Source: Raillietiella orientalis (lineage: Eukaryota). Taken from it: DNA of 64,000 nucleotides. The stretch lies in the NCBI GenBank assembly GCA_036172245.1, contig JAYWIR010000108.1:62001-126000 (forward strand). The letters are read 5' to 3'. Below the pieces are notes generated by a model. The model was not told the origin of the DNA. It did no database searches and was given only the letters and a program-made list of their open reading frames with translations. Of the stretch, positions 18,701 through 60,630 are shown piece after piece (the first letter of the stretch is position 1; the number at the start of each line of letters is the position of its first letter). A program made the position numbers and the translations under genes.

Positions 18701-18761
18701 GGGCCTTGTACCACGCATGTGAAGTTTATTAATAAACGTTCCGGGCGTACCCGGGTGATAA
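15748..18761 (+). mobile_element. Subfamily B1, linker-RT-Zn finger-3' UTR
   Basis: ORFs 16328-17236 (YADD), 17249-18097, 18107-18556; 3' end AATAAA..CCGGGCGTACCCGGGTGATAA. Confidence 0.92.
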
Positions 18762-19511
18762 CGCCGAAACCTGGAGGGAGACGGTTCAGGGGAAACTGGT
18801 CGCAGAACTCGCTGACTGAGCTCTTCATGTCGTCCCAGTCCGCGAGCGACTGCAGATGGAAGCCTTGTAGGAACGAGCGAAGATGTTGCGCTGCTCCTGC
18901 GAGGCGCAACCAGTTCCCTGGCAAACGCCACGCTGTGGAGGGTGGACCTCTACCGCGCGGGTGTATTTATAGCGCGAGCCGGGGATGGTCGGAAAGTTCG
19001 GATGGCACTGCCCCTCGATTTTCCACCCGCGAACACAGATGGTTGTCGAGGAACATGTGGTCGATCCTCGTCTCCGTCCCGGCGTCACCAGCCAACAAGT
19101 TGCGCGCGTGCATGGCAGCGCACATATCTTTGGCCAGCTGTGCGCGAATGTCGGGCGCACCTGCCAGCAGGCGGACGTTAAAGTCCCCGGCAATGAGGTG
19201 CGCCTTTCGTATGTCTGCTTCGGCCAGCCAATCTCGCCGCAGGCCTTCGAAGAACGCAGTGCGTTCCCCGCGCCTGTGGCTCCTGCCGGGCGCGTACACG
19301 TTGGTCACGACGAGGTCGATCGCGTCGGACCACTTGGCAACAAGCTGCCCGATTTGACCTTCCCCGTCGAAGTGCACGTCGCGCAGCGCATTAACGACGG
19401 CTGGCTGCAGCATGAAAGCCACACCGCGGGTGCGGTCTCTCCCGTTGTGGTATACGAGCCGCCCGCCTGAGATCCGTTCGATTTCCTGGGCCTCCCCTGC
19501 GTGGAGCACGT
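18762..19511 (-). mobile_element. APE fragment (possibly the 5'-truncated end of the A element at 1364-3036)
   Basis: NVYAP, AGDFN, IDH, SDH; ends at PPGFG. Confidence 0.85.
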
Positions 19512-22075
19512 GCGTCCGCCGTGCACCGCGCAGTCAAGCGCTACTACTCCTCGTTGTACGAGGAGGGGCCTACGAAACGCAGTCTCTCTGAGCTGCTTCT
19601 TCCGACGGGTAACCCTGCTATCGATGAGGAGGAACGTTCTAGTTTGGATTGGTCCTTCACGGCGGAACAAGTATCTTTCGTTTTCGCGGACCTGAAAAGG
19701 CGTAAGGCGCATAGCAAGGATGGCCTGTCCGCGGAGTTTTTTCATTGCTTCGCTGTGGAGCTCGTCCTTCGGGTGCGAAGGCTCTCCTCGCTGAAGAGTA
19801 AGACGGGAGATGTTAACGCTTCTTTCCGCTCAGCAAAGGTGCATGTATTCCTGAAAGGCGAAGATTTGCGCCACCTCAGCAGCTTGAGTCCGATCACCTT
19901 GGGGAATTCGGACTTCAAGTTGTTTTGAAGCTATGGGTCGTGCGCCTGGGAAAAATCGCGGACTGCTGAATAAGTACGGAGCAGATGTATGCTGTTCCGG
20001 GGCGACCCATGGACGCGAATCTCCTCTTCGCGCGAACATGTTTCGAGATGCAGCAGCGCGTGGAGCAGCAGAGCCAGGCAGCCAAAATCGCAGCTGCCAA
20101 AGGTAAGCGGCGGTGTTCAAGGCACGATGGAACGCCGGGAGCCTAAGCGCTCGCCGTCGATCTCTGCAAAGCGTTTGACAGAGAAATCCAGGACCTCCTT
20201 CTAGAGCTTCTGGGACGCCTAGGCTTCCCGACGCACCTCATCGCTTACTTGAGCTTCTGTTGGCACCACGCGTTACTGCTGTATCTCCTTCAGCGGGCAC
20301 CACGTGTACGGCATTCCCATACGGCGGGGTATCGAGCAGGGAGACAGCTTAAGCTGCCTGCTCTTCAGCATCTTCTTTGAGTTGGTGCCGAGGTCGTACA
20401 GGATGACGCCGGCCAGCCTGCCTTGCTCCTGCCGGGGAACAATGGCCGTGGCCGCCTATACTGACGACCTTGTCCTGCTGCTGCCCATGTCCTCCCCGCC
20501 GTCCATGATCGAGGACTTCTTCGAGCTCATTCGTCGTGGAGTTGGCCTGAGCGTCAAGAGGACGAAATCAACCGTTGTACCGATTGGCTCTTCTTGGGAG
20601 GGGCAGTCCGACTGGATCCGCTTGGGGATCCCCACGGGCAGGTGCTTGAAGTACCTCGGCGTTTCCTTGGGCGCCTTCTGTCCAGCAGAAGCGTGGTCCG
20701 ACTGCCTTCACAAAGCCCAGACTGCTCTGGGCCCGTTCTAAGGCGGCAGCTTTCACCTCTCGGAACGGGATTACGTGTGGAACATATTTGTTGCCCCCCT
20801 CCTCCGTCCTTTCTTTTTTGTTTGTCCTCCTTTCTACTCGGCTATGCGTCAAGCGCAACGCCTGTTGCGGAACGCCCTGTGGGGACCGGCGAGGTCCAGT
20901 ATCCGCCTTCAAGACTTGGCGCCTCCGCGTTGGGATGCTGGCATGGGCATACTGACGCTGGAGAGAATCGAGCTGCAGGTGCACCTTCGCATGTTAGCCC
21001 TGTGCGCCAACGAACTTTCAATCCTGGTGGGAGGAACCTTTGCATGGCTGGGCAAAGCACCAAAGTGCTATCCTCCGGAACTCCGGTGCGCTTACCTCTC
21101 CCCATACTGCACTTGGATGAGGTGTGCATTGCCAGATTCAGTGGACTCGCCTTTGCCGTCACGCCTCTCTTCGATGCGCTGTCAACCCTCAGAGCAAGAG
21201 ATGACAGCTGCGAACAGGCGAGATGGGAGGTCGCATGCACCATTGCAGGAACAACACGAATCATTGGCGGCTGGATGACTTGCGAGCTCTAAGACGTTGT
21301 CACGCCTCGCTACATCTCGAAAAGACTACTTTAATGGAGTGAACGCTTTAGTGTGCCCTCCAAAGAACTTGTTGTCCCTTCCTCCTGTTTGAACACTTCC
21401 GTGTTCCCCCTTTTGTGGAAGCAGGACGTCATCATGCTGATGCATTGGGGTTTTCTTTCCAACCAGCGGACGACAGCGTTTTCGGGGGAGTTGTCTTCTC
21501 AAACTGTAAACGGTGCGGGTAATTGGAGACGCTGGAGCACCTGCTCCTGGACTGCGGTGTTCTCCTAGTACTGTGTTGGCGGCTGGCCTTAGCTCTCCTG
21601 CACCAGAAGGACACCGCCAGATACTTGAAGCGCCGCTTCTTCACATCAGGCTCCCTGTCTTTAGGTGCTGTCGTTGCAACCTTGTTTTGCACCCGCACCA
21701 TCGACAAGGCCCACCGAGAAGTGGAGAAGCTGGCCGTCCTTCGTCAGCCCACCGGATTAGCCAGCGCAAGCATGTGGTGGGCTGCCGAGTGAACCCATCT
21801 ACCACAGAGCGAAATGAGAGATATCGCCGGTATCCATCGCCGGTTCTAAAAGGAAAAAACGGCCGAACCAAAGGCCTTTGTCCACTGCCCTCCATATTTT
21901 TATTAATATTTTTTATACTGGTGTACTTGTGGTCCCTGCCTCCCGTTTCGGACTTTTGGTATACCGACCTGCGTGCGGGGGATCCTACCCTATTCGTCTT
22001 CTCTGTGTCCTTTGTCCGGGAACATTGTTCCCGGATAGTTTTACAATAAACGCCCCGGCACATTCGGGTGATACA
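19512..22075 (+). mobile_element. Subfamily D, heavily decayed linker-RT-3' UTR
   Basis: QGDSLS, YTDD, KYLG; 3' UTR homologous to 50174-50400 and 38638-38865. Confidence 0.88.
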
Positions 22076-24068
22076 CAGCCGACCCCTGCGATAGTCTTGA
22101 TCTCCTGGACATCTGCCGCGGTGATCACGTATATCTACTACAGCAGGGCCAGGTCGAAATCACGCAGTGTGTAGGCCGTATCTCGTCTGTTGCCGTCGTC
22201 GCGCAACCCGTCGACGTTCCAGCTGGCCACGCGGATTCGACAAAGACAGGCAAGTCCAGGAGTTATTCCTGGGAAATTGGCTCGTAAGCGTCCGCCAACT
22301 TTGGGGCGGAACTCTAGGTGAAGGGGCTGTGTCACGCAGCGCTTCTCCCTTCCATATGGGAGCCTAATCGTCGTCAGGACCGTGCAAAGGAAGGAGGGGT
22401 TATAGCCACCTGCACTTCTTCCTCTATAAGGGTCGTCAGCTGCACGGTGTCGGGGAATGAGTGATTCCCGCCCTCGCCTCCCACGCTGCCGGCTTCCCTC
22501 TTCGGTTCCGGTTCATTTCCCTACTTCTTTGTTCGGATGCACTTTCTGGGAATCTGAGACTTGCGTCCCGTCTTTTCTGCTAGCGCTTGCGCTTAGGAGG
22601 ACGCACTTCCGCCATCCGGAACGGCATCACTTGCCTCCGGAGCCTTCCTTGCGGCCGGCCTTCGTAAGACATTCCACGAGATTTTCTCCCGGCCTTGCAG
22701 TTCAGCCGCGAGTTTTTGCACCGTTTACTCGAAGGCGTCCTCCTCGATCGCATCGAGCGCAGCACGCGGTTCCCTCTCTCTTCCCTCAGATGTTTCACCA
22801 TCGACCGTCGCTGCTCCGGCAGACGCGAGGGGTAGATTGCTCCCTCGGTGTCGGCATCGAGTGCCTTTACACGCTCTTTTTTCACCGAACATTTGCGTGG
22901 ATTCACGCAAAACAATTTTTTGTGCTGCGATTTTGTTTTCCCTTGGTTTCTTTCGAAAGTCCCGGGCTTTCTTCTTGGCTGCACAGTCTGCCAGCCTCCG
23001 CCGTCGCCAGCATCGTCAGAGTGCTCTCAACCAATGTTTGCTGGAAGGGTTCACGAACTGGAATCTGGCTTTTAACAGCCTGTTCTCTGTTATTCATCTG
23101 TTCTCACCGCTTTCACTTTGCCTTTTTCGCAGGGGGTTGGACCAGGATTTCTCTTGTTGGGCACACCTTTCGAATATGGCCCTTATTTCCACATAAGTGG
23201 CATTGGATGTTAGGGCATCGTATTTTTAAGTGTCTTGTGGCATCGCAATGACCACAATAGTTGATTTTTCCAACGTACCAAACATCGACTTTCTCTTCGC
23301 CGAGGTTTAGCTTGTGGGTAAGCCCACCATTCTATCGTAATGTGACGCGGGCGGCGTCCATGCCACTGAATAGTCTTCCGTACGTTCGGAAGGCATTGGG
23401 TTTGGCCCAATACGCGTGCACTCTACCATGTTTTGACAACTCCTTATGGACGCTGGTTTTGTCTATTCGGAGTGATACGCCCGTGAGGTGGACCACTACG
23501 GAGCGGTCCTCCTTCACAGGGAAGATCCTGCGGCCGTCAATCGTAATTGGGGTGTCGAGTAGGCGCTGCGACAGACTTTCCTCTCTGCAAGTCAGCTCAA
23601 CTCGCTGCCCCCCACTAAGGAGGAAGAGGCCCGCAATGTCTTTCTCCCTTACATTCATTCTTTGCAGCTCCATCTCAAAGGAACGTGCAATTTTCTCTTC
23701 AAATACATTGCCCACCTTATTGATTAGCGAAGGTTTGTAGCCGCTGTCCTTGTAGGCAGTCTGTCCTGCAGCTGCAGCCCGGATGTTCTAGCAACGACGG
23801 CACTCCAACACCTCGCCGCTGGCAAAGAGGGTCGCGAAGAAGCGGTTGTCCCCGTTTCCGACGGAACAAGTGCTCCGTATTCCGTATGGGCGGATGCTCT
23901 TACTTTCATGGCTGGAAGAGCGCAAGCTGCCTTTCCTTTCTCAGTTTCCATCGCAATGTCCTTAGGCGTTTCTGCCATGGGACACCAGCGCTCTCACACG
24001 CCATACAAACTTCCCAAACCCTAAGCACTATATAGACCGTTGAGCGATGCCAAACCACTTCCACTCCC
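22076..24068 (-). mobile_element. Subfamily B3, decayed 5' UTR-ORF1-start of APE
   Basis: MAETPKD start 23978; VHLTGVSLR, CGHCDATRHLKIRC; ASWNVDG. Confidence 0.85.
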
Positions 24069-29758: not shown

Positions 29759-30546
29759 AGCCTTGCTCCAAGTGGTGACGATCCCGCTTAGGCAGCACAA
29801 AGCTGCTAACAAGGCCGCTGGCCGAAGGACGTCGGCAACGAAGAGGGCTTTCAGTGCGTCCCTGGGGTTGCCGCAAAGGATTTCGATGGCCGCGGCAGAG
29901 CGAAACCTAACGGACCAAAGGGCAACACAATCAACTAGCAGATGGGGGACGGACTCCCGTTCCCCATACCTGAAGCAATTGGGGTCCACCGCTTTCCAGG
30001 TCCAGTAATGTCGGCGGGCGTTGCAGAGGAGTTCCCAGTGCTGCAACAGCAGAGCCGACTCCTGCCATTTTAAGGGGAGGGCGGAAGTGTTCATGAGCAC
30101 CGGGGGCCACTTCAGATGTTCAATGGGAACATCGAGCAGCGCGCCCCAGCGCAGAAGTCCATTGGGAGGCGTACTCGGGGTCGCAGCGTCTGTTAACTGG
30201 CCCGTCTTTCACTCTCCTATCTTCTTCTGCTTTCCGGAGATTGTTACTCTAACCACCCACTTCGCCGCAACATCGCTGTCCAGATCTTTCATCAGGGAGG
30301 GCAGCGCAATAGCGAGGGGGGTTCTTCCTGCCCACGCTTAATTCTTTGGATCCTCCAGGATCTCGCGGAGCGTGGGACTTCTGTAACCCCCAAACAGGAA
30401 CCTTCGTTCCTGTTGGGAGCGTTGCATGCCGAACTGTCCCCACGTTCGAACGGTTTCCTGCAATCAGGCACTACCGTTAAACGGGCGACAGGTGTGCAAT
30501 CCTAGGTTTTTTGATACAGCGCAACCACCCTCCGTAGCTAAAGTCC

Positions 30547-33192
30547 TCATCGGTTGACGTGGCGACGGAGTGCAAGAAACGACGTCAGTCCCGTCTTGCC
30601 GGTGGCTTGCTGGAGAAGGAGACGTGCAGGGACGCACCAACAGGTGCACCACAACTCTGCAACGAGTGCCGACAAGCGGAACTGGAGCTGAAGCTCCAGG
30701 CGCTCAAGCGTCAGGGGGCCCAGACCACCATCCCGACGAGGAGCGCACAAGTCCTTTAAGAGGACTCGGGCCCTCACGTTGCCCCAAAGCGCGATACAAA
30801 GGAGGTCCTTTGTCTGCTTTTCAATCCTCTCTGTGGGGGGGCAAACAAAAAGCAGGGGGCGGAGGAGAGGAGCCGCGAACGTGTTCCAAACCGCGGCCCG
30901 TTCAGGCAGGAAAAACCTGCCGCCTCGGAACGGGCCGATCGCCGTCTCTACTTTTTGAAGGCAGCCGGACCACGCTTCCGCAGGGGAGTAGTCCCCCAAC
31001 GGCACACCAAGGTACTTGAAGTACCTCACCGTGGGGATCCCCAAACGGACCCAGTCCTGCTGCCCTGACCGCGCCGCACCAACTGGCATCACGGACGGCT
31101 TCGCCCTGTTCACCGTAATTCCGGTACCCCGATGCAGCAGGTCGAAGAACTCCTCGACCGCCGCAGCCGGAATGGACATAGAGAGCAGCAGCAGAAGGTC
31201 GTCCGCGTATGCTGAAACGGCCGGCGTACCAGCACACTCGTGCGGCAGGTGCGCCAGAGTTCCCCTGTACGCTCTCAGTACCAACTCAAAGTAGGTACTG
31301 AACAGCAAGGGGCTCAGGCTGTCTCCCTGCCGGGTCCCACGCCGCACCGGCACGCCGTGCACGTTCTGCCTGCTGAAAGTAACATTGATGAGCGCGTCGC
31401 GCCAGCAGGAGCGCAGATAGGCCAATAAAGAGACCGGGAAGCCCAAGCGTTCCAGAAGCTCCAGAAGGAGATTCTGGTCGATGCAATCGAATGCTTTTCG
31501 CAAGTCGATTGCGACCGCAAGGGCTCCCTCCCTCACCCGACCATCCAACCCCTTGCCGGCGCACGCACCGGAATTCCGGCTGCGCACCAAGCTCCTTTCA
31601 TGTTGGAGCTCTAGCCAGGTGGAAGCGAGGAAAAGGTTTGCCTCCATGCTTCGCCCTGGAACAGCATATGTCTGTTCCGGGCTGATGAAGATTTTGGCAA
31701 CACGTCCCAGACGCTCTTGCCAAACCTTAGCCACCAACTTGGCGTCCGCATTCACTATTGTAATGGGACGCCAGTTGTTCATGCTCCTCAGATCTCCTTT
31801 CTTAAAGAGGAGCCGCAGCTTTGCCGAACGAAACGAGGCGGGAACGTCACCTGTTTCGCGTATCAGCAAGGTGAGTTGCTGTACCAGGGGGGTAAGCTCA
31901 GCCGCAAAAGTTTGATAAAACTCCGAGGGCAGGCCGTTTTTTTCTGGAGCCTTTCGCCTCTTGAGCTTTCCGATGGGATAGAGGTTCTCGTCCATCGTGA
32001 AGGGGTCGTCGACGGTCTTTCTCTGCTCCTCCCCTATCGCTGGAACGCCTTCGGGAAGCAGGAGTCGTGAGACGTTCCTCTCCGGAGGTGCCCTGGCATA
32101 CAGGGAGGAGTAGTAACTCCGCAGCAGGCCGCGGATTTGGGCAGGTGCCGAGTGCTCGTGGCCCTGATCGTCCAGTAAGCTGGCCAATCCGTACTGCCAG
32201 GCTTGCCTCTCGGCTCCCGCTTTGTATTCCGATAGCCTGCGGATGTCGGGGGTCCTGGCGTAACGACGGGCCTGCAGGTAGGCTCGTTCGTTACGGACCC
32301 CGGTCCCAAAACCCGTGGGTAGGCGGTGCAGAGGGAACTGGTCGCAGAACTCCTGGACCGACCGCTTGAAGCGGTCCGAATCCTGGAGTGTCCGCAGACT
32401 GAAGCTCCGTATGAACGTGCGAAGATGTTCCGCCGCGTCCGGGAGCTTCAACCAGTCCCCTGGGAGACGCCACGCTGACGAGGGGGGGCCCCTGTCGCGC
32501 GGATGGATCTCGAGGACTAGTGGGTGATGGTCGGACAGCTCGCACGGTAACCTGCCGCGCCTGCCCACGCGAGGGCACAGGTACTCGTCAAGAAACACGT
32601 ATTCAATGCTCTCTTCCATCCCCGGTGCACTGGCCAACAGATTACATGTGTGCACCGCCATGCACACCTCGTTGACCAGGCCACGCTCGTGATTCTGCTC
32701 ATCTGGTTTCAGGCGAACGTTGAAATCGCCTGCAACCAGATGGGAATTCCGCACGCCTGCTTCGGTCAGGCAGTCTCGTCGGAGGGCAAGGAAAAACACT
32801 TTCGTCGCCCTCCTGTTTATCAGGTCGTTGCCGCTCGGTGCGTACACGTTCGTGACGATCAGATCGATTGAGTCGGACCACCTGAGAGTCAGCTGGACGA
32901 CACGTCGGTGATCGTCGAACCGCACGCCCCGAGCCGCGGCCTCGACGGCTGGCCGAAGCAGGTAGGCGACACCGCAACTTTTCGCTATCCCACAGCTGTA
33001 CCATAGCCTCCCTCCGGAGATCCGTTCGACCTCTTGCGCTTGTTCTGCAGAGATCACGTGGATCTCCTGCAGCAGCGCAAGGTCCTTGGACTCCAGTAGT
33101 GCGGCCCTGTCTTGTCTCCTTTTGGCGTCTGTCATGCCGTTCACGTTCCAAACGGCGATGCGCAGACGACGGCGGGAGGAGATTCCCGGCAT
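30547..33192 (-). CDS. ORF2 APE + RT, 881 aa open (longest intact ORF; downstream C-terminus frameshifted)
   Basis: WNVNG, LQE, YAP, AGDFN, SDH, DLRKAFD, RQGDSLSP, YADD, KYLG all in one frame. Confidence 0.93.
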   Translation of the reverse strand: MPGISSRRRLRIAVWNVNGMTDAKRRQDRAALLESKDLALLQEIHVISAEQAQEVERISGGRLWYSCGIAKSCGVAYLLRPAVEAAARGVRFDDHRRVVQLTLRWSDSIDLIVTNVYAPSGNDLINRRATKVFFLALRRDCLTEAGVRNSHLVAGDFNVRLKPDEQNHERGLVNEVCMAVHTCNLLASAPGMEESIEYVFLDEYLCPRVGRRGRLPCELSDHHPLVLEIHPRDRGPPSSAWRLPGDWLKLPDAAEHLRTFIRSFSLRTLQDSDRFKRSVQEFCDQFPLHRLPTGFGTGVRNERAYLQARRYARTPDIRRLSEYKAGAERQAWQYGLASLLDDQGHEHSAPAQIRGLLRSYYSSLYARAPPERNVSRLLLPEGVPAIGEEQRKTVDDPFTMDENLYPIGKLKRRKAPEKNGLPSEFYQTFAAELTPLVQQLTLLIRETGDVPASFRSAKLRLLFKKGDLRSMNNWRPITIVNADAKLVAKVWQERLGRVAKIFISPEQTYAVPGRSMEANLFLASTWLELQHERSLVRSRNSGACAGKGLDGRVREGALAVAIDLRKAFDCIDQNLLLELLERLGFPVSLLAYLRSCWRDALINVTFSRQNVHGVPVRRGTRQGDSLSPLLFSTYFELVLRAYRGTLAHLPHECAGTPAVSAYADDLLLLLSMSIPAAAVEEFFDLLHRGTGITVNRAKPSVMPVGAARSGQQDWVRLGIPTVRYFKYLGVPLGDYSPAEAWSGCLQKVETAIGPFRGGRFFLPERAAVWNTFAAPLLRPLLFVCPPTERIEKQTKDLLCIALWGNVRARVLLKDLCAPRRDGGLGPLTLERLELQLQFRLSALVAELWCTCWCVPARLLLQQATGKTGLTSFLALRRHVNR

Positions 33193-33728: not shown

Positions 33729-33811
33729 CTCCATCGCCTCTGGGGGCGACGTTGCCGCCGCCCTCTGGCTCTCCATCGCCTCTGGGGGCGGCGTTGCCGC
33801 TGCCCCCTGGC
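33729..33811 (-). repeat. 2 x 42-bp tandem repeat in ORF1 N-terminus
   Basis: Encodes QGAAATPPPEAMES / QRAAATSPPEAMEV. Confidence 0.85.
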
Positions 33812-33930
33812 CATCCCTGGTCGTCGCGTCAGGCATCGCTGCCCGATCGACCACCGAACCACACGACGCTTGCACTGGGGGAGACTTCCTGGCACGAGGA
33901 GCACCGAGAAAACACGTCCACCCTAGAGCG

Positions 33931-47628: not shown

Positions 47629-47899
47629 ATCGAACGCCTTGTGGAGATCGACTGCGAGCGCTAGGGCCCCCTCCCCCGCTCAAGGTTCCCTTTTCAGCCC
47701 GGTTGGCGGCCCCAATGTGGGGTTGCCGACTTTCCCTATCCCTTTCTCTTCTCTTCTCTGCAGGTGCACCCATGTGCTCGCGAAGAAGAGGTTGGCATCC
47801 ATACTTCGCCCGAGAACAGCATAAGTCTGCTCCGGGCTAATTACGGATTCTGCCATCTGCCCTAGACGCGAAGCACATAGCCCTGCTATCAACTTGGCG
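47629..47899 (-). mobile_element. Subfamily B1 RT fragment (AKLIAG..DLHKAFD)
   Basis: Matches 16403-16672 in reverse. Confidence 0.85.
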
Positions 47900-50173
47900 T
47901 GCGTACGTGTTTTTGTAGCGCTCCTCCGCGCCTGGTGTTAAGCGGTTGATTTCTATTGTGTTTGTGTGTGAAGCATCTGCGGTGTCCAATGGCAGAAATG
48001 CCTGAGGACACCGCGATGGATATAGGAGGGGGAGAGGCTTGCTCCTCTCCCCAAATCACGGAGGTGAGGGCAACCGCCCCCACGGAGGTGACAACAGCCG
48101 CACCCCTGACAAAAGGAGCAACCGCCGCTTCGGAAGCGAGGGCAAAGGCTCCCTTGAAAAGGGGGCCAAAGTTAAGCTGGAACAGGGTGCAACCGCCCTT
48201 TTGAAGAAGAGGACAAGCGCCTCCTTGAAAAAGGGAGCACCTGCACCCTCGAATGCGTCTTCGGCATCGCCGAAGACCTGGAGTTCAGTGGCCACAGCTC
48301 CATCTCCTGCAGCCCTCGCCGAGCAGAAAGCCTACCTTGAGCAGGGATACAAGCCGTCCCTGATATACAAGGTAGGCAATCTGTTTGTGGGGAACACCGC
48401 TCGCAACTTCGAAAGGGAGTTGCAGCGCTTGAATGTAAAAGAGGAAGACCTGGAAGGTCTTTCCGTGTTGAGTGGTGGTCAACGGGTGGAGGTGACTTGC
48501 AGAAATGCAAGCCTTGCTCAACACCTCCTGAATACGCCAATCACACTGGAAATCCGAAAGGTTTTCCCGGTAACGGAGGATCGCTCCGTGGTGACGCACC
48601 TCACGGGAGTCACCCTCCGCATGTCGAAAGCCGACGTGCATGAGGAAGTCGGAAAATACGGAACGGTTCACGCGCTATGGATTAAGCCCAACGTCTTCCA
48701 GAGTTACGGAAGACGGTTTAGTGGCATGGCTGGTGCGCGTGTAACCGTCCACGAAAACGGTGGGCTATTCCACAAACTAGACGTCGGCAACGAGACCGTA
48801 GACTGCTGGTACTTGGGGAAGCCCAAGTATTGTGCACACTGTGATGCCACAGGGCACCTGAAAAAGCGGTGCCTTCACATCCAGCGTTTCCACTGTGGAG
48901 AGAAATGCCACCTCCGCAAAGTGTCCCCGAAGCGCGAACCCCCGGCTCCCGCTGCCTTGAAAAAGGCCAAAGGGAAACGCGCGGGGGTTACGGAAAATCC
49001 TGCGAAGGCACCCGTGAGACGGAACCCACAGCCGGAGCCCGAACCCGTACAGCAAACGCCGGTCGTGGAATCTACCGACGACGCTGAAAAGAGCGAAGGC
49101 TGGCAAAAGGCGAAGCCTAAAGCTAAGAAAACAAAGAAAACCGAAGGGTCGACAGCGGAACCTGCGACGTCTCCTTTAAATAGGAGACAACGCCGCGCCT
49201 TGATCCGCGAATGTTCGGTTGGTTTGGAGCGTGTGGAGGTACCCGAGACCGCCCCCGAGGGAGATATCCCCCGCGTCAACGCCGACGATAACGCGATCAC
49301 GGAAGGCGAACTATCTGTGCAAACAGAGGGGGAACCGCGCGACGCGCTCGCCGCGATCGACGAGGCCGCCTTCCAGAAGGCAGCGGAAGAGCTCGTGGCC
49401 GAACTCGCCGACCGTGAGAACGGCGCGCGAAAGGCCTTGCGAAGGCCGGACGCGACCAGGGCATCTCCCACAGGTGACCACGACCCGGATGCCGGAAGTG
49501 CGTGCTCCTCCACGGAGGCGCCTCCGAAGAAGACGGGACGGAAGTCCAAGAATCCCAAGAGGCGCATCCCGACGAAGAGCGCGGGATACTCACCGGCAGC
49601 CGAGGGGGAAGCCGGCAGCGTGGGAACGGAGGGAGGAATTTTCCCACACTCCGCCACCGAGCAGCCGGCCACTTCCATGGAGGAGGGGGAGCAGGTAGGG
49701 TATTGCCTCTTTCTTCCACCGGTGGAGCCTGCGGCGGAGATGGTCATGGAAGAGACGGAGCAGACAGCTGAGAACCGCTCCCCCCTGCCGACCGACGTAG
49801 CCAAGGAATCGGTCCCCATGGAAGAGGGGAAGCAGGTGCGTGAAGCATGCTCCCTTCAACCGTTGCGGTCCGCCAAGGAATCGGCCCCCATGGAGGTGGG
49901 ATAACCGCTGGGCGCTGCCCCCATGCCTTTTTCCGTCCCGCCAGACCAGGTGGCGGGAGCCCCATTGCCAGTTTCTTGGGAATAACACCTGGGCTCGCCT
50001 GTCGCCGTCGATTGCGTGTATCCTGCTGGAACGTCCACGGGCTGCGCGACGACAGCAACAGACGGTACACGGCCGCCACCCTGCGTGACTTCGACCTGGC
50101 ACTCCTGCAGGAGATCCACGTGATCACCGCGGAGAACACCCAGAAAATCGAAAGGATCGCAGGGGGACGGTTG
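47900..50173 (+). mobile_element. Subfamily B2, 5' UTR-ORF1-APE N-terminus
   Basis: ORF 48039-49904 with CAHCDATGHLKKRC; WNVHG, LQEIH; cut at GGRL. Confidence 0.9.
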
Positions 50174-53100
50174 AATGTCACGCAAGTGCGCCGGGGCGTT
50201 TATTATATACTATCCTGGAACACGGTTCCCGGACAAAGGGGAAAACAAGAGACGAAGGGGATGGGATCCCCGGCACGCAGGTCGGTATGGCGAAAGTCCG
50301 GAACGGGAGGGAAGGGACCACAAACACACAACTATATAAAAAAATAAAAGAAAAATATGGAGGGCAGGAGACAGGGGTCTTTGGTAAATCCGTTCTTTCC
50401 TTTCAAAACCGGCGATGGATGCCGGCGATCTCTCTCCTTACGCCCTGTGGCAGATGGGCCCACTGGGCAGCCGACGACATGTTTGCGCTGGCTAATCCGG
50501 TGGGCTGACGAAGGATGGCCAGCTTCTCCAACTCTCGGAGGGCCTTGTCGATGGCGCGGGTGCAACACACGGTTGCAACGACAGCACCCAGAGACAGGCT
50601 GCCTGGCGTGAAGAAGCGGCGCATCAACTTTCTCGCGGTGTCCCCCTGGTGCAGAAGAGCTGAGGCCAGCCTCCGCCAGAGTCCTAGAAGTGCACCGCAG
50701 TCCAGGAGCAGGTGCGGGAGCGTTTCCGCTCCCCCGCACTGCTTACAGTTTGGGGAGACGACTCCCAAGGAAACAAGGTTCGTGCGCTGCTTGGAGTGGA
50801 AACCCCAATGCACCAGCATAATCACGTCCTGCTTCCACGAAAAGGGGAACACAGAAGTGTTTAGACACGAGGGAGAAACCACAAGTTCTTCAAGGGGCAC
50901 ACTCAAGTGTTCGCTCCTCCGAAGAAGTCCCTTCGGAACGTGGCGAGGTGTGGCGGCGTCCGCCAGCTCGCAAGTCTGCCAGCCGCCAATAGGTCGCGTT
51001 GTTCCTGCGATGCTGCAGGCGACCTCCCATCTCGCCGGTTCGCAACTGTCATCTCTTGCCCTGAGGGCTGACAGTGCGTCTTCGAGGGGGGTGACGGTTA
51101 GGCGGGTCCACTTCTCCTGGCTGTTGCACACCTCATCTACCGTGCAGTACGGGGAGAGGTGAGCGCAACGGAGTTCCAGGAGGGAAACATCCTGGTGCTT
51201 TGCCCAGCCATGCAACGGTTCCTGCTGCCAGGCTTCAAAGTTTGTTGGGCGGCAGGAGATCCATTCCTGGGCTTCCAGGAGCCGATACAGCGGTTCCAAG
51301 GGGAAACCGATGCTTCTCGTGGCGCGCTCCGTGTGCGACCGCAGCGACAGAAGTCCATCGCTGCCTGTGCAGCGCCGCAGAAGCAGGCGCGTGGGAGCGC
51401 ACCACGGAGTGGACCAAAGGTTGGCGCACAGGGCCAACATCCGAAGCTGCACCTGCAGCTCGATTCTCTCCAGCGTCAGGATGCCTAAGCCAGCATCCCG
51501 ACGCGGAGCCGCCAAGTCTTTGAGACGGATCCTGGACCTCGCAGGTCCCCACAGAGCGTTCCTTAACAGGCTGTGCGCCTGGAGCTTGGCCGAGTAGGGG
51601 GGCGGGCAAACAAAAAGCAGGGGGCGCAAGAGAGGGGCAACGAAGGTGTTCCATATCGTGGCCCGCTCCGGCAGGACGAACCTGCCATGGTGGAACGGGC
51701 TCAGGGCATTCGAAGCCTTCCGAAGGCATTCCGACCACACTTCCACTGGGCTGATGTTCCCCAGCGGAACGCCCAGATATTGCAAGGAGGAAGCGGTCAA
51801 GATCCCCAGGCGGATCCAGTCGGACTGCCCCTCCCACGCCGCACCAATAGGTACGACCACGCTCTTGCTCCGGTTGACGCTCATGCCCGCTCCCCGGCGA
51901 ATCAGCTCGAAGAAATCCTCGAGACTGGATGCCAGGGTGGTCATGGGTAAGAGGAGGAGCAGGTCGTCAGCATAGGCCGCCATTGACGGCGTTCCTGGAC
52001 AACAGCTCGGCAGGTTTGCCAGCGTCAGCCTCTACGCCCTCAGCACCAACTCAAAGAAGATGCTGAAGAGCAACGGGCTTGAGCTGTCGCCCTGCCTGAT
52101 GCTCCGCCGCACCGGCACGCCGTACACGTGGCAGCCGCTAAAAGAGATGGAAATGAGCGCGTGGCGCCAGCTAGCGCGCAAATCCGCCACGAGGTGCACC
52201 TGGAGACCGAGACGTTCCAGGAGCTCCAGCAGGAGATCCTGATTTACGCAATCGAACGCCTTGCGGAGATCGAATGCGACCGCCAAGGCTCCCGGCGCTT
52301 CCCCAGACCGAATGCAGCGACGCCTAGCCTCGGCAGCCGCATACGCGGTTGCCTGGCTGTCGTGCGCCACGCAGCGTTGCAGCTCGAGCCATGTGCGCGC
52401 GAAGAACAGGTTCGCCTCCATGGACCGCCCGGGAACAGCGTAAGACTGCTCCGGACTTACTACGCATCCAGCGATCCTGCCCAGGCGCGCGACCTACAGC
52501 CTGGAGAACAACTTGACGTCCGCATTCACCAAGGTGATGGGACGCCAGTTGCTTAAATGGCGCATGTCTGCGCCTCTCAGCAACAGACGCACCCTTGCTG
52601 AGCGAAACGAGGCCGGGACATTGGCCGTCTCTCGCATCAGCGCAGAAAGCCTCAGCACCAGGGGGATGAGTTCCGACGCGAAGCACTGGAAGAACTCCGC
52701 AAGCAGACCATCCTCACCTGGCGCCTTGCGCTTCTTGAGTCCCGCTATGGCGGAAGACACTTCTTCCGCCGTGAAGGGCAAGTCAAGAGTGGCGCGTTCC
52801 TCCTCGTCGACCGCCGGAGAATCCGCCGGCAGAAGCAGCTCCGAGAGACTGCGTTCCGTCGGCTCCAAAGCGTACAACAAGGAGTAATAGCGCTTCAGGA
52901 GGCGGCGAACTTCGGCCGCGCCCAAGCACTCCAGGCCCTGGTCGTCGAGCAGACAAGCTGCTCCTGACTGCCAGACCTGGCGCTCGGCCTTGGCCTTGTA
53001 CTCCGCAAGGTACCGGACGTCCGGGCATCGAAAGAATTGGCGGGCCTGCAGAAACTCTCTGCTGTTGGCCACGCCTTTCCCGAAGCCACGGGGAAGCAGG

Positions 53101-54915
53101 CGCAAGGGGAACCGCCTGCAGAACTCGCGGACCGATCTTTTCAGATCGTCTCAGTCCACGAGCTCTCGAACGGCAAAGGTCCGGAGATGCTGGCGGAGGT
53201 GCTCCGCAGCCACAGGATTTCTCAGCCAGTCGGCCGACAACCTCCAGACGTGCGTCGGAGGGCCCTTGCCAGGCGGGAGTAGCTCAAACTCCAGCCTGTA
53301 GTGGTCGGAAAGCTCGGACGGAACAGGACCTCTTCGACCCACCCGACAATGCAGGTGATCTTCGAGGAACACATGGTCCGGCAAAGCACGCATTCCGGGA
53401 TCGTCGGCCAGCAAATTCGAGGCGTGCACCGACGCGCACACCTTGTTCACCAGCCGTTTTTCATGGCGACGGTGACAGTCCTCCGATAGCGCGTGGACGT
53501 TGAAGTCCCCGGCTACGAGGTGAGCCACGTCGGGGCCGGAGTTGCTGAGCCAGCAGTCGCGCAGTCTCTCGAAAAACTATAGTTTCTCGGTGTGACGCGC
53601 GGAGCCGCTCGGCGCGTACACGTTCGTGACGACAAGGTTGATCGATTCGGACCACTTGGGAACAGGTTGGCCCACACGACCTTCCTCGTCGAAACAAACG
53701 CTCCGCACCGCTCCCGCCACCCTGCCTCGGACAAGGAATGCGACTCCGCAGGTATTCTGGGAGCCTGACCTCCAATGAAGCGTCCCGCATGCGCGAACTT
53801 GCAGATCGGCCGCTTGCTGCTCGGAGAGTGCGTGAATCTCCTGCAGCAGGATCAGATCGATTTCGCGCAAGACGTTGACAACCAATCGCCTCTTCTCGTT
53901 GTCCTGCAGCCCGTTGACGTTCCAACAGGTCACTCGGACGCGACGGGAAGAAGCGAGACCGCGCATTGCTGCTACGGACATGGAGGTGCGTTCCTCGCCC
54001 CGTCCGGCGAGGCATCAGCCGGGAGCATGGCGGATGAGGTAGCGCAAGCGTTTCCTGTCCCCGCCGCGCCGCTCCAGCCGGCTCGGTGGAGTCGAGGACC
54101 ATTACCTCGGGCTCCGAGGAGCATCGGGAACCGTTCCCGGCATCAGACACTTGCCTGGCAAGTTTTGGCTTGCGCGCAGCCCTGGCCTTGACCGGGGCTT
54201 GGCGAGCCATAGCGCTGCCCTCGGACTCCACCTCGGAGTGCGAATTGCGCGCGCGCGGCGGCGGGCGTTTCGCCTGCCTCTTTGTTTGCTGGCAGCCCAG
54301 AGCTGGTCCAGCACTCTTAGAGGGTGCCTTCGTCGCCGATCCCCCTTTCGGTGTCACGGCTTCGGCAGCTCCCCTCTCGCCGCGGGTGTTTGCGGCAACG
54401 CGCGCGGCGGCAGCAGAGGCTTTTCCTTGCGCCTTTCAGGACGCGCGGGGTTGCCCCTTCACCCTGCCTACCTTTTTGATCGGGAAGTGGGAAGGATCGC
54501 GCTGTTTGCGCTCCTTCTTTCCCCCGACGAAGGTCCAGCCATCCTCGCCGCCTTCCTGTTTCCCCGGTTGTGCGCGAGGGCTTACAGGGTCCTTCGCATC
54601 CTTTCCAAGGCTTCGGATACGGAGATGGAGGCCAGTGTCTCCTTCGCCACATCTGCCTTCTGCACCTCCTTACTGGGAGGTGCGGGCACAGTGGCGGGAT
54701 TCTCGGGTGTCGCGCGAGTCTTTTCAGCCTTTGCTGGCGTTCCGCCCGCCGTGGCCGGCTTGTTTGTCGCGGGCAAAGGGGTGCGCGACTTCTTTTTCGA
54801 CGCTCCGGTGGTCTTCCCGGGCGTGCCACCGTTATTTCGCTCCGGAGCGAGAGCGGACGAAAGCGGCGGTGGTTTTGCAGCCTGCCCGATGTTTTTGCCT
54901 GTTTTTGCAGCCTGC
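50174..54915 (-). mobile_element. Subfamily D, ORF1 tail through 3' UTR
   Basis: Collinear APE, RT (YADD), CKQCGGAETLPHLLLDC; several stops. Confidence 0.92.
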
Positions 54916-57179
54916 ATTTAATACACCAATCACACTAGAAGGCCGAAAGGTTTTCCCGGAAACGGAGGATGGCTCCGTGGTGATGCACCTCATGGGAGTC
55001 AACCTCCGCATTTCAAAAGCCGACGTGCAGGAGGAACTCGGAAAATACGGAACGGTTCACGCGCTATGGACCAAGCTCAACGTCTTCCAGAGTTACGGAA
55101 GACTGTTTAGTAGCATGGCAGGTGCGCGTGTAACCGTCCACGAAAACGGTGAGCTACCCCACAAACTAGACGTCGGCAACGAGACCGTCGACGTCTGGTA
55201 CGTGGACAAGCCCAACTACTGTTGACACTGTGATGCCACAGGGCACCTGAAAAAGCGGTGCTCTAACATCCAGTGTTTCCACTGTGGAGAGAAGGGCCAC
55301 CTCTGCAAAGTGTCCCCGAAGCGCGAACCCCCGGCTCCCGCTGCCTTGAGAAAGGCCAAAGGGAAACGCGCGGGGGTTACGGAAAATCCTGCGAAGGCAC
55401 CCGTGAGACGGAACCCACAGCCGGAGCCCGAACCCGTACAGCAAACGCCGGTCGTGGAATCTACCGACGACGCTGAAAAGAGCGAAGGCTGGCAAAAGGC
55501 GAAGCCTAAAGCTAAGAAAACAAAGAAAACCGAAGGGTCGACAGCGGAACCCGCGACGTCTCCTTTAAATAGGAGACAACGCCGCGCGTTGATCCGCGAA
55601 TGTTCGGTCGCTTTGGAGCTTGTGGAGGTACCCGAGACAGCCATCGGGGCCGATATCCCCTGCGTCGATGCCTACGAGAACGCGATCACGGAAGGCGAAC
55701 TACCTGTGCAAACAGAGGGGGAACCGCGCGACGCGCTCGCCGCGATCGACGAGGCCGCCTTCCACCAGGCGGCCGAAGAGCTTGCGGCCAAATTCGCCGA
55801 CCGTGAGAACGGCGCGCCAAAGGCCTTGCGAAGGCCGGCCGCGACCAGGGCATCTCCAACAGGCGAGCACGACCCGGATGCCGGAAGTGCGTGCTCCTCC
55901 ACGGAGGCGCCTCCGAAGAAGACGGGACGGAAGTCCAAGAATCCCAAGAGGCGCATCCCGACGAAGAGCGCGGGATACTCACCGGCAGCCGAGGGGGAAG
56001 CCGGCAGCGTGGGAACGGAAGGAGGAATTTTCCCACACTCCGCCACCGAGCAGCCGGCCACTTCCATGGAGGAGGAGGGGGAGCAGGTAGGGCATTGCCT
56101 CCCCGTTCCACCGGTGGAGCCTGCGGAGGAGATGGTCATGGAATAGGCGGAGTAGACAGGTGAGAACCGCTCCACCCTGCCGACCGACGCAGCCAAGGAA
56201 TCGGTCCCCATGGAAGAGGGGAAGCAGGTGCGTGAAGCATGCTCCCTTCAACCGTTGCGGTCCGCCAAGGAATCGGCCCCCATGGAGGTGGGAGAACCGC
56301 TGGGCGGTGCCCTCATGCCTCCATCCGTCACGCCCGACCAGGTGGCGGGAGCCCCATTGCCAATTTCCCGGGAATAACACCTGGGCTCGCCTGTCGCCGT
56401 CGATTGCGTGTGGCCTGCTGGAACGTCCACGGGCTGCGCGACGACAGCAACAGACGGGACACGGACGCCAGCCTGCGTGACTTCGACCTGGCACTCCTGG
56501 AGGAGATCCACGTGATCACCAGGGAAAACGCCCAGGAGATCGAGAGGATCGCAGGGGGGCGGCTGGTGTGTCAATGCGGCACCCGATACAGCTGCGGCGT
56601 CGCGTTTTTCATGAAGCCGGCGATCGACGCTGCCGTGAAAAGCGTGCGCTTCGACGAAGCCGGTCGTGTCGGCCAGCTGATTCTCAGGTGGTCCGACACG
56701 ATCGACCTCGTCGTAACAAACGTATACGCCCCGAGCGGTTATAACGGGTACCGGGAACGCGCGGCGTTCCTGGAAAGCCTGAAGCACGACTGGCTGGTGG
56801 AAGCGAACGTGCGCGTGGCTCACCTGATAGCGGGAGACTTCAATCTCTGCCTGCTATCAGGTGATCCACGCACACAGGAACGGACGGTTAACAAGTTTTG
56901 CGCTGCCATGCGCACGCGCAACTTGTAAGGGGAACTCCCGGAAATGGTCAGCAGCATCGACCACGTCTTCCTGGACGTAGACCTGTGCTCGCGGGTAGGC
57001 AAACGTGGGAAAGTTGCGTCGGAACTGTCTGACCATTCCAAATTGATATTCGAGGTGTGCCCGCGCGACAAGGGACCCCCGTCCAGGGTGTGACGGTTGC
57101 CTGGGGACTGGACGCGTTTCTTAGATGCGAAGGAACACCTTCGCGAATTCCTGAGAGGCGTCACCTTCCGGAATCTCGC
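54916..57179 (+). mobile_element. Subfamily B2, part of ORF1 and APE
   Basis: Near-identical to 48530-50173; APE continues to FRNL. Confidence 0.9.
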
Positions 57180-60100
57180 TTGAATCCCGGGTGCGCCGGG
57201 ACGTTTGTTCTCACGAATGAACCTATATAATCTGTGACTGGACCAGTAGTCCAGCCACGCCCTGGAAAGATATGCTTGCCGGGCTACCGGTGCGCAGACC
57301 AACGCGGTCGACCTCGGCAGCAGAGGGGAGGGGTAACGAAACAAAAAGAAAACAAAAAAATAAACAAAAATCAGGGAGGGAGCGGGAAGGGATCACAGTC
57401 TGCTGGGAGGGTCCGTCATCCTCTGGAGGATGCCGGCAAGCTGCTTCTGCGTGTGTGGTTCCAGGTGGGGCCATCGCGTCGCCATCCTGAAGAAACGGTC
57501 GGCACACACGTTGGCATCCCTGTCGCTGGATCCTCCCGTCGCTTTGCTCCATGCCACGACGATCCGGCGTAGGCAGCACAGGGCTGCATTCGAGGCCGCT
57601 GGAGGTAGGGCGTAATGGACGAAGAGGGGGCGCAAAGCGTTTCTGGGGTTGCCTTTGGGAATCCCCAGGGCTGCGGCAAAGCGTTCCCACAAGGGACGGA
57701 GGGCAACACAATCCACTAACAGGTGGGGGAGGTATTCCCTCTCCCCGCATCTGACAAAATTAGGGTTGACACTCCCCCGCGTCCAGTGGTGTCTCCGGGC
57801 GTTGCAAGGAAGTCCCCAATGAAACACCAGCAGTGCCGACTGTTGCCACTTCATGGGGAGGGGGTGCGAGTCCATGAGCACCGAGGGCCATTCGAGATGT
57901 TCCTCTGGAACACCCAGTAGCTCTACCCAGCGCAAGAGTCCATTTGGGGTGGTCCTCGGGGTCGCAGCGTTGGTGAGCTGACCTGTTCTCCAATCCCCGA
58001 TCATCTTTGCCCTGCTGGCGATCTTGAGAGTGACCTCCTATTGTGCTGCGACGTCGCTGCCCAGATGTTCCCGTAGGGTAGGCAGTACCGCAGCAAGGGA
58101 TGTTCTTTCTGCCCACGCCCTCCTTCGGGGATCCTCGATGATTTCTCGGAGCGTGCGGTGGGCATGAGGCTCGAACAGAGCTATTCGCTCGTGTTGCGGG
58201 CTCTGCTCCTGAATCATCGCCCACGTGCGCACGGTTTCCTGCAGCCAGGCAGAACCGTTTGCGGGGCGTACGTGGATCCGCGCCAAGTTGTCCCTCACGA
58301 GCTTGGCCGCCCTCCGAAGTTGAAGTCCGCAGTGGCAGATGCGGCTTCGGAGTGCAAAGTAGGACGAGAGTCCCGCATTGCCGGTGGCCCGCTCGACGAG
58401 GAGACGTGCAGGGAGGCACCAAGGGGTGCACCAATGTTCTGCCATAAAGGCGACAACTCGGAACTGGAGCTGTAGCTCCAGCCGCTCCAACGTCAGGAGG
58501 CCCAGACCACCATCCCGACGAGGAGCGCACAAGTCCGAAAGACGGATTCGGGGCCTCCCTCTGCCCCAAAGGGCGATCCTCAGGAGGTCCTTCGTCCTCT
58601 TCTTTGACTCCGCTGAGGGGGGGCAAACAAAAAGCAAGGGGCGAAGGATGGGAGCCGCAAACGCGTTCCACGCCGCGGCCCGTTCCTGCAGGTAGAACCT
58701 GCCGTCCTGGAACGGGCCGATCGCCGCCTGAGCCTTCTGAAGGCAGCCGCATCACGCTTCCGCAGGGGAGTAGTCTTTCAACGGCACACCAAGGTACTTG
58801 AAGTACTTCACCGTGGGGATCCCCAAACGGACCCAGTCCTGCTGCCCTGCCCACGCCGCTCCGACTGGCATTACGCACGACTTCGCCCTGTTCACCGTAA
58901 GTCCAGTTCCACGACTCAGCAGGTCGAAGAAGTCCTCGACCGATGAGGCCGGGGTGGACATAGGCAGCAGCAGCAGAAGATCGTACGCGTACGCCGAAAC
59001 CCCAGGCGTACCGGAACAATCGCACGGCAGGTGTACCAGAGTCTCCCTGTATGCTCTCAGCACCAATTCCAAATAGGCCCTGAAGAGCAAGGGGCTGAGG
59101 CTGTCTCCCTGCCGTATGCTGCGTCGCACCGGTACGCCGTACACGTTTGATCCAGTAAAAAAAACATTAATAAGCGCCTCGCGCCAGCTAGAGCTCAAGT
59201 AGGCCAGAAAAGAGGCCAAGAAGCCCAAACGTTCCAGAAGCTCCAAAAGGAGATTCTGATCGACGCAATCGAATGCTTTATGCAAATCGACTGCGACCGC
59301 CAGGGCTCCTCTCCCCTCCCGACCCTCCCGTCCCTTACCGACGGACGCACCGGAATTCCGGTTGCTTATTATGCTCCTTCCTTGTTGGAGCTCTATCCAT
59401 GTGGAAGCGCTGAACAGGTTCGCCTCCATACTTCGCCCGGGGACCGCATATGTCTGTTCGGAGCTGATGAAGACGTTGGCGACCCGTCCCAGGCGCTCTG
59501 CCCACAGCTTGGCTAGCAACTTGGCGTCCGCATTCACTGTTGTGATGAAACGCCAGTTGTTCATGCTCTTAAGTTCTCCTCCCTTAGGGAGGAGCCGCAT
59601 CTTTGCTGAACGAAACGAGGTGGGAACGTCACCTGTTTCGCGGATCAGCAAGGTGAGCTGATGTACCAGAGGAGTAACCTCTGCCGCCAAAGTTTGGTAA
59701 AACTCCGCAGGCAGGCCGTCACCCCCTGGAGCCTTTCGTCTCTTGAGCTTTCCGATGGCCGAGATGATCTCGCCCATCGTAAAAGGCTCGTCGAGGTTCC
59801 TTTTCTCCTTCTCCCCGATTTCTGGAGCACCTTCCGGAAGCAGGAGTCGTGAGACAGCATGCTCCGAAGGCGCCCTAACGTACAGGGAGGAGTAAAATTT
59901 CCTCAGTATCCCGCGTTTCTGAGCGGGAACCGAGTGCTCCCGGCCCTGGTCCTCCAGCAAGCTGACCGACCCGGATTGCCAGGCTTGCCTCTCGGCTCCC
60001 GCTCGATACTCTGCTAACCTGCGCATGTCGGGGGTTCTCGCGTAACGGCGGGCGTGAAGATGACACCTTTCGTTACGCGGCCCCTCCCCAACTCCCTCTC
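57180..60100 (-). mobile_element. Subfamily C, linker-RT-3' UTR
   Basis: Closely similar to 10217-13130. Confidence 0.92.
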
Positions 60101-60630
60101 CTGGAGAGCGGACGTGTTTTTCCGGCGCTCCGCGAACGAGCAGCGGAAAGCGGTTTTTTTGGTTCTGTGTGTGCTTTTTCACATCGTTGGTGTCCGATGG
60201 CATCGCTGCCAGAGGACGCCACGATGGAGATAGGCGTGAGGGAGGCTAGCCCCCCCCCACGACCTACAGAATCAGGGACACCCGCTCCGGAATCGCCCTC
60301 GTCGCCCAAGACGAGCAGCTGGAGCGCCATGGTCGTCGCGCCGAGCGCGGAAACCTTGCCTGAGCAAGCGGCCTACAGGGCCTCCGGATATAAACCATCC
60401 CTGGTTTATAAGGTAGGAAACCTGTTCGACGGTCGCACCGCGCGTGCTTTTAGCAAGGCACTACAGGAATTCCCCGTGCGTGAAAAGGATCTCGACGGCC
60501 TCGCCGTACTCAGCGGAAGACAATGCGTGGAGGTCGTCTGCAAAGACGTAGCCCTAGCGCAGCGCCTCTTCAACACTTCGCTGAATGTGGCTGGCCGAAA
60601 GATCCTACCCGTTAGCATGGATCCTACCCG
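60101..60630 (+). mobile_element. B1-like 5' UTR and ORF1 N-terminus
   Basis: GGACGTGTTTTT at 60110; ORF1 similar to 36153 onward. Confidence 0.88.

Follow-up and report, generated by a model that had tools for sequence, protein, structure and literature searches.

Can a family of retrotransposons grow by inserting at chosen bases of its own coding sequence? The question is raised by the 64-kb window analysed here (the whole stretch of DNA, positions 62,001 to 126,000 of contig JAYWIR010000108.1), almost all of which consists of interleaved copies of long interspersed nuclear elements (LINEs), lying on both strands and interrupting one another. All coordinates are those of this window. We propose that one subfamily, B1, and a close B-lineage relative probably insert site-specifically and in antisense at a bond just past a conserved Gly-Phe-Gly (GFG) motif, which lies in the linker between endonuclease and reverse transcriptase in the second open reading frame (ORF2) of other copies, and that the sister subfamilies each have a site of their own.

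Junctions at the GFG site

A profile built from 3′ termini found 13 3′ ends in the window and no further ones, the next-best matches having E values of 0.95 or more, and this is why only two B1 3′ ends are available to test. B1 termini follow the pattern …CCGGGCGTACCCGGG-N-GATAA. The first of the two closes the copy that we call B1a, whose right part (15748..18761, plus strand) runs from 'LRNLQ' in ORF2, across an intact GFG site of its own (15834-15843), to the 3′ end ...AATAAACGTTCCGGGCGTACCCGGGTGATAA. Its last bases, ...CCGGGCGTACCCGGGTGATAA, stop at 18761, and the flank that starts at 18762 with CGCCGAAACCTGGAGG is the reverse complement of R-L-P-P-G-F-G plus one base. The host, F6 (18762..19512, minus strand), is an ORF2 fragment of residues ~45-296 that is cut exactly after GFG plus one base; its first 16 nt (18762-18777) are the B target, and the flank continues for 750 nt as antisense ORF2, aligning from flank base 2 to positions 2622..2504 of the reference C element, again in antisense. 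The left part of B1a (8182..10216, plus strand) is a 5′-truncated B1 that extends from late ORF1 to 'LRNLQ' in ORF2 and is 93.6% identical to 36658-37486.

The second B1 3′ end belongs to B1b (33931..36035, plus strand), which is 90% identical to B1a in the reverse transcriptase (RT) and has the 3′ end ...GGGAGATAA; a minus-strand A copy, whose 5′ junction falls in the 'KAFD' codons, cuts off its 5′ part. B1b finishes with ...CCGGGCGTACCCGGGAGATAA at 36035 and is followed by only 16 nt of flank, the spacer CCCCAAATCCATTGGC (36036..36051, plus strand), a remnant of a GFG target that reads in antisense as A-N-G-F-G plus one base. Directly after it comes B1c (36052..37486, plus strand), the 5′ part of another B1 with 5′ end, 5′ untranslated region (UTR) and ORF1, so that the 3′ end of B1b, the spacer and the 5′ end of B1c stand head to tail. 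B1c ends at a non-terminal join to a 5′ fragment of E type on the minus strand.

A third junction lies in Cb (57180..60085, minus strand), a copy of subfamily C. The Cb flank stops at T60085, directly before CCCCAACTCC (60086-60095), which continues as the codons G-V-G, and the Cb antisense reads ...G-V-G-E-G-P-R-N near 60101. The B nick position is separated by 10-17 nt (60086..60102, plus strand) from a conserved 5′ end, GGAGAGC GGACGTGTTTTTCC, which begins at 60103-60110. The first 10 of these nt are GFG-site-like and run on from the host reading frame; the remainder (CTCTCCT) belongs to a near-palindromic filler. The fragment that follows (60103..60616, plus strand; 5′ end, UTR and ORF1 start, ~515 nt) is 74.5% identical to B1c, a higher value than for the C (60.5%) or A (63.9%) 5′ region. 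Near 60616 it is fused, at a CATGGA microhomology, to a D-subfamily ORF2 (60617..63316, plus strand) that starts at about residue 395 and has the 3′ end ...GGGTGGCAAA. The element at 60103 is either two elements fused by deletion, with both site rules kept, or one internally deleted element with flanks from different hosts. The first-pass annotation had seen a B1-like 5′ end near 60101 interrupting a C element; the junction in Cb does fall at the same bond, and the fragment is of the B lineage rather than B1 itself and is joined to D.

Lined up with the window's eight uninterrupted GFG sites, the three junctions fall in register at the same homologous bond, after the first base of the codon following GFG, although the three target sequences differ (CGCCGAAACC, CCCCAAATCC and CCCCAACTCC). 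The site accounts for both B1 3′ ends and both B-lineage 5′ ends visible in the window (2/2 each). The register CCNAANCC (antisense GG.TT.GG) occurs at 45 of the 128,000 window positions on both strands, which gives a chance of ~3.5e-4 per end, and the probability for a 16-mer to match any GFG site as well as the spacer does (11/16) is P = 3.7e-3. The two 16-nt B1 targets differ at 6 of 16 bases, the B1 copies themselves are 87-90% alike, and the flanks are unrelated past 16 nt. Were one of the B1 3′ junctions a copy of its counterpart, those at the B1c 5′ end and in Cb would still be separate, so that at least three B-lineage events in three hosts are represented.

Taken together, the interpretation given by the first-pass annotation is partly supported. 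It had placed two B1 3′ ends in GATAA before an antisense GFG, and both (18761 and 36035) read as it claimed, in the same register as the eight intact sites. It had treated the spacer at 36036-36051 as variable host sequence and not as a constant part of the terminus, which agrees with ~6 of 16 positions differing from the bases before the other B-lineage 5′ end. Its proposal that B1 and C hit each other stands insofar as the reference C element lies in B1a and a B-lineage 5′ end lies in Cb, and fails for the one long B1 host: F6 is not a C copy but a lineage apart, whose endonuclease region is 62-65% identical to those of A, B1, C and F. The spacing of about 22 codons between the B1 and C sites has to be corrected, as the nick-to-nick distance in B1a is 80 nt (10216/15764 to 15843), or ~27 codons. 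The expected B1 duplication of ~16 bp was not recovered, since no second copy of either flank was found at a plausible place in the window with up to two mismatches; a window search for repeats of the 3′ flanks gave a true repeat at the reference C element alone.

The sister subfamilies and their family

For nine of the 13 3′ ends, at least one other end of that subfamily lies at the matching host position, and all nine are antisense to the host. E ends lie after 'SGGR' (3/3), C ends after 'LQ' (2/2), B1 ends after 'GFG' (2/2) and A ends at 'KAFD' (2/2), and with the same counts each subfamily has inserted at the same base of diverged hosts, a trait of sequence-specific LINEs. The clearest case is C. 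The full-length reference copy (Cref, 10217..15747, minus strand, ~5.5 kb) lies inside B1a and is flanked by a perfect 16-bp duplication, CGCTCCGGAATCTCCA, with 10201-10216 equal to 15748-15763. The C site follows L-Q of 'LRNLQ|DWD' in the host ORF2, upstream of the GFG site within the same linker, and is occupied by the ends at 10217 (in B1a) and 57180 (in F19). The second end is that of Cb, which is 92% identical to Cref in RT and sits in the 'RNL' site of F19 (54920..57179, plus strand), a B-related host (78% to B1a in the endonuclease region) interrupted at the C site. A sequence close to the C target also lies, unoccupied and in sense orientation, in the ORF1 start of the B-lineage 5′ regions (60278-60293 and 36245-36262; CCGCTCCGGAATCGCC versus CCGCTCCGGAATCTCC).

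The A site is the RT motif '..KAFD', reached by 3′ ends at 42353 and 47629 in two different hosts and by one 5′ junction. The copy A16 (39221..42353, plus strand) ends in …CAGAAAA against the antisense '..KAFD' of F14 (42354 onward), and A18 (45215..47629, plus strand) ends in …GTCAAAA against the antisense 'DLHKAFD' of F16 (47630-47895). The 5′ junction is that of A_F11 (29760..33930, minus strand), an A copy that has lost an internal part of ORF1 and keeps an endonuclease-RT frame open over 881 aa; it lies in B1b (33920-33944) and follows 14 nt of the A target (33931-33944).

The E site follows 'SGGR' near the start of the endonuclease, and the ends at 50171, 38635 and 22078 occupy it in three diverged hosts. 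E_F18 (50171..54919, minus strand) adjoins the antisense 'IAGGR' of F17 (47896-50170), and E_F7 (19513..22078, plus strand) lies against 'IAGVG' of a host, in antisense, and joins F6 at its truncated 5′ edge, 54 nt from the E site. E_386 (38591..39220, minus strand) consists of the 3′ part of an E copy, with its end at 38635, and a 44-nt 'ISRGQ' remnant of the host site (38591-38634), after which the 5′ end of another E-type element begins (38590 downward). E-type 5′ junctions therefore lie 44 and 54 nt beyond the E nick (38591-38634 and 19459-19512), compared with 14-17 nt for A, B and C, which suggests that the E group may use a much wider stagger. F6 and the host to the right of E_F7 were considered as one element with a 54-bp duplication, and this was rejected because the two copies are only ~68% alike.

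Four ends are of D type (63316, 1363, 1010 and 64). At 63316 the flank from 63317 is the antisense of 'SAAAE' (linker) plus one base in the host F22, and the ends at 1363 and 1010 are followed by spacers of 14 and 18 nt and then by the 5′ region of another element. The latter two belong to a head-to-tail chain (985-1363, minus strand) made up of the end at 1363, the 14-nt spacer, a short internally deleted element ending at 1010, the 18-nt spacer and a 5′ end at 991; the two spacers are unlike each other, and simple repeated insertion into one duplicated site predicts that they should be equal. The end at 64 may be a further case (1-130), as its neighbour sequence resembles a spacer plus 5′ end by eye only. 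The D copies at the two ends of the window (1592-2798 and 61879-63086) have opposite orientations, are 93-98% identical and have different 3′ flanks, and look like two recent insertions.

The affiliation of the family rests on its reading frames. The longest open frame (30547-33192, minus strand, 881 aa) matches Pfam RVT_1 (2.3e-20) and Exo_endo_phos (8.6e-08), and human L1 ORF2p is the top solved-structure (PDB) match of ORF2 (4.3e-40). Cref, taken as the reverse complement of 10217-15745 (5,529 nt), gives the element plan: the 5′ end GGACGTGTC, an ORF1 with CCHC knuckles, and an ORF2 with an apurinic/apyrimidinic endonuclease (APE), a linker, RT and a weak zf-RVT match. The matches to this last domain lie at the expected place of ORF2 in two copies and score 18.0 and 14.8 bits, under the 27.5-bit cut-off. 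Other LINE traits are present as well, namely the lack of terminal repeats, target duplication and many 5′ truncations, with 13 3′ ends to seven recognisable 5′ ends, the latter carrying GGACGTGTYTTT or a near match. From the APE and RT frame, the L1 match and the ORF1/ORF2 plan, we conclude that the elements are, as judged by sequence, eukaryotic non-long-terminal-repeat (LINE) retrotransposons of the APE type with an L1-like build. A group II intron or other structured RNA was rejected, since Rfam gave no matches and no tRNAs were found in the window.

The APE motifs WNVNG, LQEIH, GDFN and SDH are conserved in all eight aligned copies that cover them, except that the F6 fragment excludes WNVNG and LQEI, that one copy has CDH for SDH, and that there are single substitutions. 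The interval from GDFN to SDH is the most variable portion of the endonuclease in this alignment and is a candidate region for its specificity.

Subfamilies were set by RT identities and tail types, and on these grounds the family comprises at least five sisters. RT identity within subfamilies is 88-92% for A (tail …CAAAA), 92% for C (…TTCAA), 90% for B1 (…GATAA) and 72-75% for the older E group; D (…GGCAAA) is ~71% identical to all others. Between A, B1 and C it is 72-81%, A and C being ~80% alike and B1 ~75% to both. All 13 3′ ends have an AATAAA followed after 3-4 nt by a conserved CCCGG-loop-CCGGG hairpin and a tail of 2-4 A, and a poly(A) run was found at none of the 13. The A-rich tail lies ~25-30 nt past AATAAA (for example 18730-18761, 10217-10250 and 47595-47629), a spacing like that of a canonical polyadenylation signal; the green-algal polyadenylation signal differs from AATAAA.

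A protein database search gave seven matches, one of them close (71% identity) and two carrying zf-RVT, and the ESM Atlas returned generic APE and RT clusters. The B1 3′-end pattern had no matches in the metagenome, genome and viral contigs searched, and a scan for related loci gave 71 pattern matches with none confirmed. One public DNA run (coded X1) contained short contigs mostly 90-95% alike to the elements of 18000-37900, with 0.11 of the sampled words, so that relatives of the family exist in another sample, and no RNA run was listed as containing them; among the contigs listed for this run none spans the three B junctions, which leaves it neutral on the joins.

The window ranges from 45 to 63% in guanine plus cytosine (GC) content, and lower values are found at 24500-29760 (45-54%), a stretch without a recognisable ORF from 24.5 to 28 kb. 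This low-GC stretch (24.5-28 kb) and several long ORFs had no Pfam match. After 28 kb a different LINE begins, with a zinc-knuckle ORF1 (28063-29004) and an APE (29150-29791), ~27% identical to the main family; it stops at 29760, where the truncated 3′ side of the A copy adjoins it.

Independent insertion and its alternatives

The junction positions, their orientation, the differences between hosts and the duplication at Cref can be read directly from the window, and the question is what produced them. One possibility is that segmental duplication or ectopic recombination made copies of a single old junction (B1 in its host, and likewise A, C and E), so that shared positions reflect common descent. 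The nest is indeed full of non-terminal junctions and duplicated blocks, such as F17 and F19 (93%) and the D copies (93-98%), and insert and flank are close in E7/E386 (78.5% for the insert and 77.5%, over 40 nt, for the flank) and in E18/E7 (82.7 and 78.3%). In the C pair, however, the inserts are clearly the more alike (94.0% for the insert, 81.4% for the flank), as they are in the A pair (84.1 and 76.3%), and the E18/E386 values are 85.1 and 73.7%. The B1 flanks, too, differ at 6 of 16 positions between copies 87-90% alike and are unrelated beyond 16 nt, two more events, at the 5′ end of B1c and in Cb, hit that base in other hosts, and Cref has a perfect duplication of its own. We therefore regard copying as an unlikely source of the shared positions in general.

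The non-terminal junctions themselves (8181, 19512, 29760, 37486, 39220, 54920 and 60616) suggest that the nest later underwent deletion and recombination. Microhomology deletions or fusions are seen at ~60616 (ORF1 to mid-ORF2, at CATGGA), at 33428-33436, where the A copy lacks reference positions ~460-1485, and at 8165-8190, where the 5′ edge of B1a meets an E copy in a 20-nt look-alike stretch. The F-type 5′ halves at 47896-50170 (F17) and 54920-56565 (F19), 93% identical, flank E_F18, and they are not two halves of one host because they overlap by ~1.6 kb in element coordinates.

A second alternative is that homology drives the targeting, the RNA carrying host bases at its ends and the cDNA being placed by annealing or gene conversion. 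This would agree with the bases before the two B-lineage 5′ ends (CCCCAAATCC and CCCCAACTCC) being closer to each other than CCCCAACTCC is to the Cref site CACCAAAACC, with 7 of the first 16 bases beyond the Cb nick differing from Cref, and with the unequal spacers of the D tandem array, for which simple repeated insertion predicts equal ones. It is at odds with 3′ junctions that are exact to the base and at which tail and target share no bases, with flanks at the C junctions that are no more alike than the hosts overall (81% versus 78%), with the perfect 16-bp duplication at Cref, which is the signature of a staggered cut, and with the conservation of an intact APE domain. We consider it as improbable as copying. 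Chance joins or mis-joins are scarcely credible: repeat nests are hard to assemble and the non-terminal junctions in microhomology (8165-8190 and ~60616) could be mis-joins or real deletions, yet in 9 of 13 cases complete 3′ termini lie against the same base in hosts that have diverged, mis-assembly joins at shared sequence and not an element tail to an unrelated coding site, and chance would give the register at only the low rate per end calculated above.

Several observations nevertheless weigh against site-specific insertion at GFG, or at least limit it. Only two B1 3′ ends are present in the window, one of the hosts is a 16-nt remnant, and the eight other GFG sites of the window are unoccupied. 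The 5′ edge of B1a adjoins an unrelated, 3′-cut E-group copy within microhomology and not F6. No B1 copy lies between two flanks of a single host, and the 13-16-nt spacer and the 10-17 nt at Cb are the only hints of the length of a B1 duplication. Those bases at Cb match Cref at 9 of 16 positions although the copies are ~92% alike, so that they may be foreign to Cb and a target copy may have been carried in the RNA; nor is the 60103 element a simple insertion, as the 3′ flank of its D body is another host at another site. The D-type ends, moreover, have no one clear common site, and E7/E386 is possibly a duplication of an old junction, given that insert and flank are equally diverged. The 3′ hairpin shows covariation in none of its five pairs, and we regard it as conserved sequence with a putative structure.

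With these points considered, site-specific antisense insertion at the GFG bond remains the probable explanation, and the following route would account for it. An APE-type endonuclease would recognise ~10-16 bp of the antisense strand (N-CC-N-AA-N-CC...) and nick it there, and the freed 3′ hydroxyl would prime reverse transcription of an element RNA ending in AAUAAA, the CCCGG/CCGGG hairpin and a short A-rich tail (target-primed reverse transcription). A second cut ~13-17 bp further on would leave a target duplication and, as the duplicated bases carry the site, a second element could land beside the first, giving B1b, 16 nt and B1c head to tail. The sister subfamilies would act likewise at other sites, E after SGGR, C after LQ and A at KAFD, and since each inserts into sibling copies, the family would pile up in itself.

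Target-primed reverse transcription fits the intact APE, the base-exact 3′ junctions, the variable 5′ junctions with few filler bases and the staggered-cut duplication at Cref, and no microhomology between element tails and targets was found for B1, C or A. Repeated insertion predicts head-to-tail pairs split by a target stretch, if the duplicated bases still carry the site, and two such pairs are present: B1b, 16 nt and B1c, and E_386, 44 nt and an E-type 5′ end. We infer the specificity of the endonuclease, the position of the second cut of B1 and the order of events from this arrangement.

Significance and known systems

A wider and more tentative reading, which we find plausible but hold to be a little short of probable, is that the window contains a guild of at least four to five sister subfamilies, some only ~20% apart in RT, each of which has retargeted its APE endonuclease to a different conserved coding motif of its siblings' ORF2 (SGGR, LQ|D, GFG or KAFD), always in antisense. 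The family would then live almost wholly inside itself as a self-feeding nest, possibly a centromere-type cluster, with head-to-tail arrays arising because each insertion re-creates its own site. If so, the sisters would form a natural series in which shifts in the sequence specificity of APE endonucleases could be followed, and retrotransposons would be parasitising or disabling one another at motifs that the host copies cannot easily change. It would also offer a concrete mechanism for the growth of LINE-only clusters by self-insertion, as reported at green-algal centromeres.

To our knowledge, few LINEs are site-specific, and the lineages known to be so have in essence a single target each. 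Close relatives that stand side by side with different base-exact targets would make it possible to find the specificity residues by comparison and segment swaps, and the question of APE specificity bears on the engineering of targeted insertion. The value of the case is limited by its resting on one 64-kb window. Base-exact antisense sites in the coding sequence of sister LINEs, one for each close subfamily, were not found in the literature searched, which did not cover the primary Zepp literature, so that such sites may already be published.

Human LINE-1 has the same architecture, with ORF1 followed by an ORF2 that contains APE, linker and RT; it nicks a loose TTTT/A consensus and needs poly(A). 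The window elements differ from it by their conserved 3′ hairpin, of the type that PMC3747384 terms 'stringent', and by their fixed sites.

A parallel in genome organization is provided by Zepp of Coccomyxa/Chlorella and ZeppL of Chlamydomonas, nested LINE clusters that, in the available excerpts of the sources (PMC3446292, PMC8226300, PMC9940879, PMC11005252 and a 2025 preprint), are said to 'target existing copies'. These are L1-type LINEs that, like the elements of the window, form clusters of nested copies of themselves, a likeness of description. They differ in that Zepp and L1-1_CR have (A)n tails in Table 3 of PMC3747384, whereas none of the 13 window 3′ ends has poly(A), and in that ZeppL is >8 kb long and the window elements ~5.5 kb. 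In those same excerpts the descriptions of Zepp and ZeppL name no base-exact or subfamily-specific sites, unlike what is seen in the window.

R2 and Utopia are site-specific as well, and the passages of PMC4640811 concerned report that one Utopia family was occasionally inserted in tandem in its target, which resembles the head-to-tail pairs of the window. They differ in that they use a restriction-like endonuclease and that their targets are ribosomal DNA or U2 genes and not another retrotransposon.

A similar mode of insertion is found in the Tx1 and R1 clades (Tx1L, Keno, R1 and TRAS/SART), which encode APE and have exact 3′ junctions, a likeness of features. Tx1L targets the Tx1D transposon. 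The parts of PMC4640811 on these clades describe APE LINEs with strict targets in multicopy DNA, transposons included. In the window, by contrast, the elements enter the coding sequence of sister LINEs, always in antisense, and several sisters with 72-81% RT identity differ from one another in their sites.

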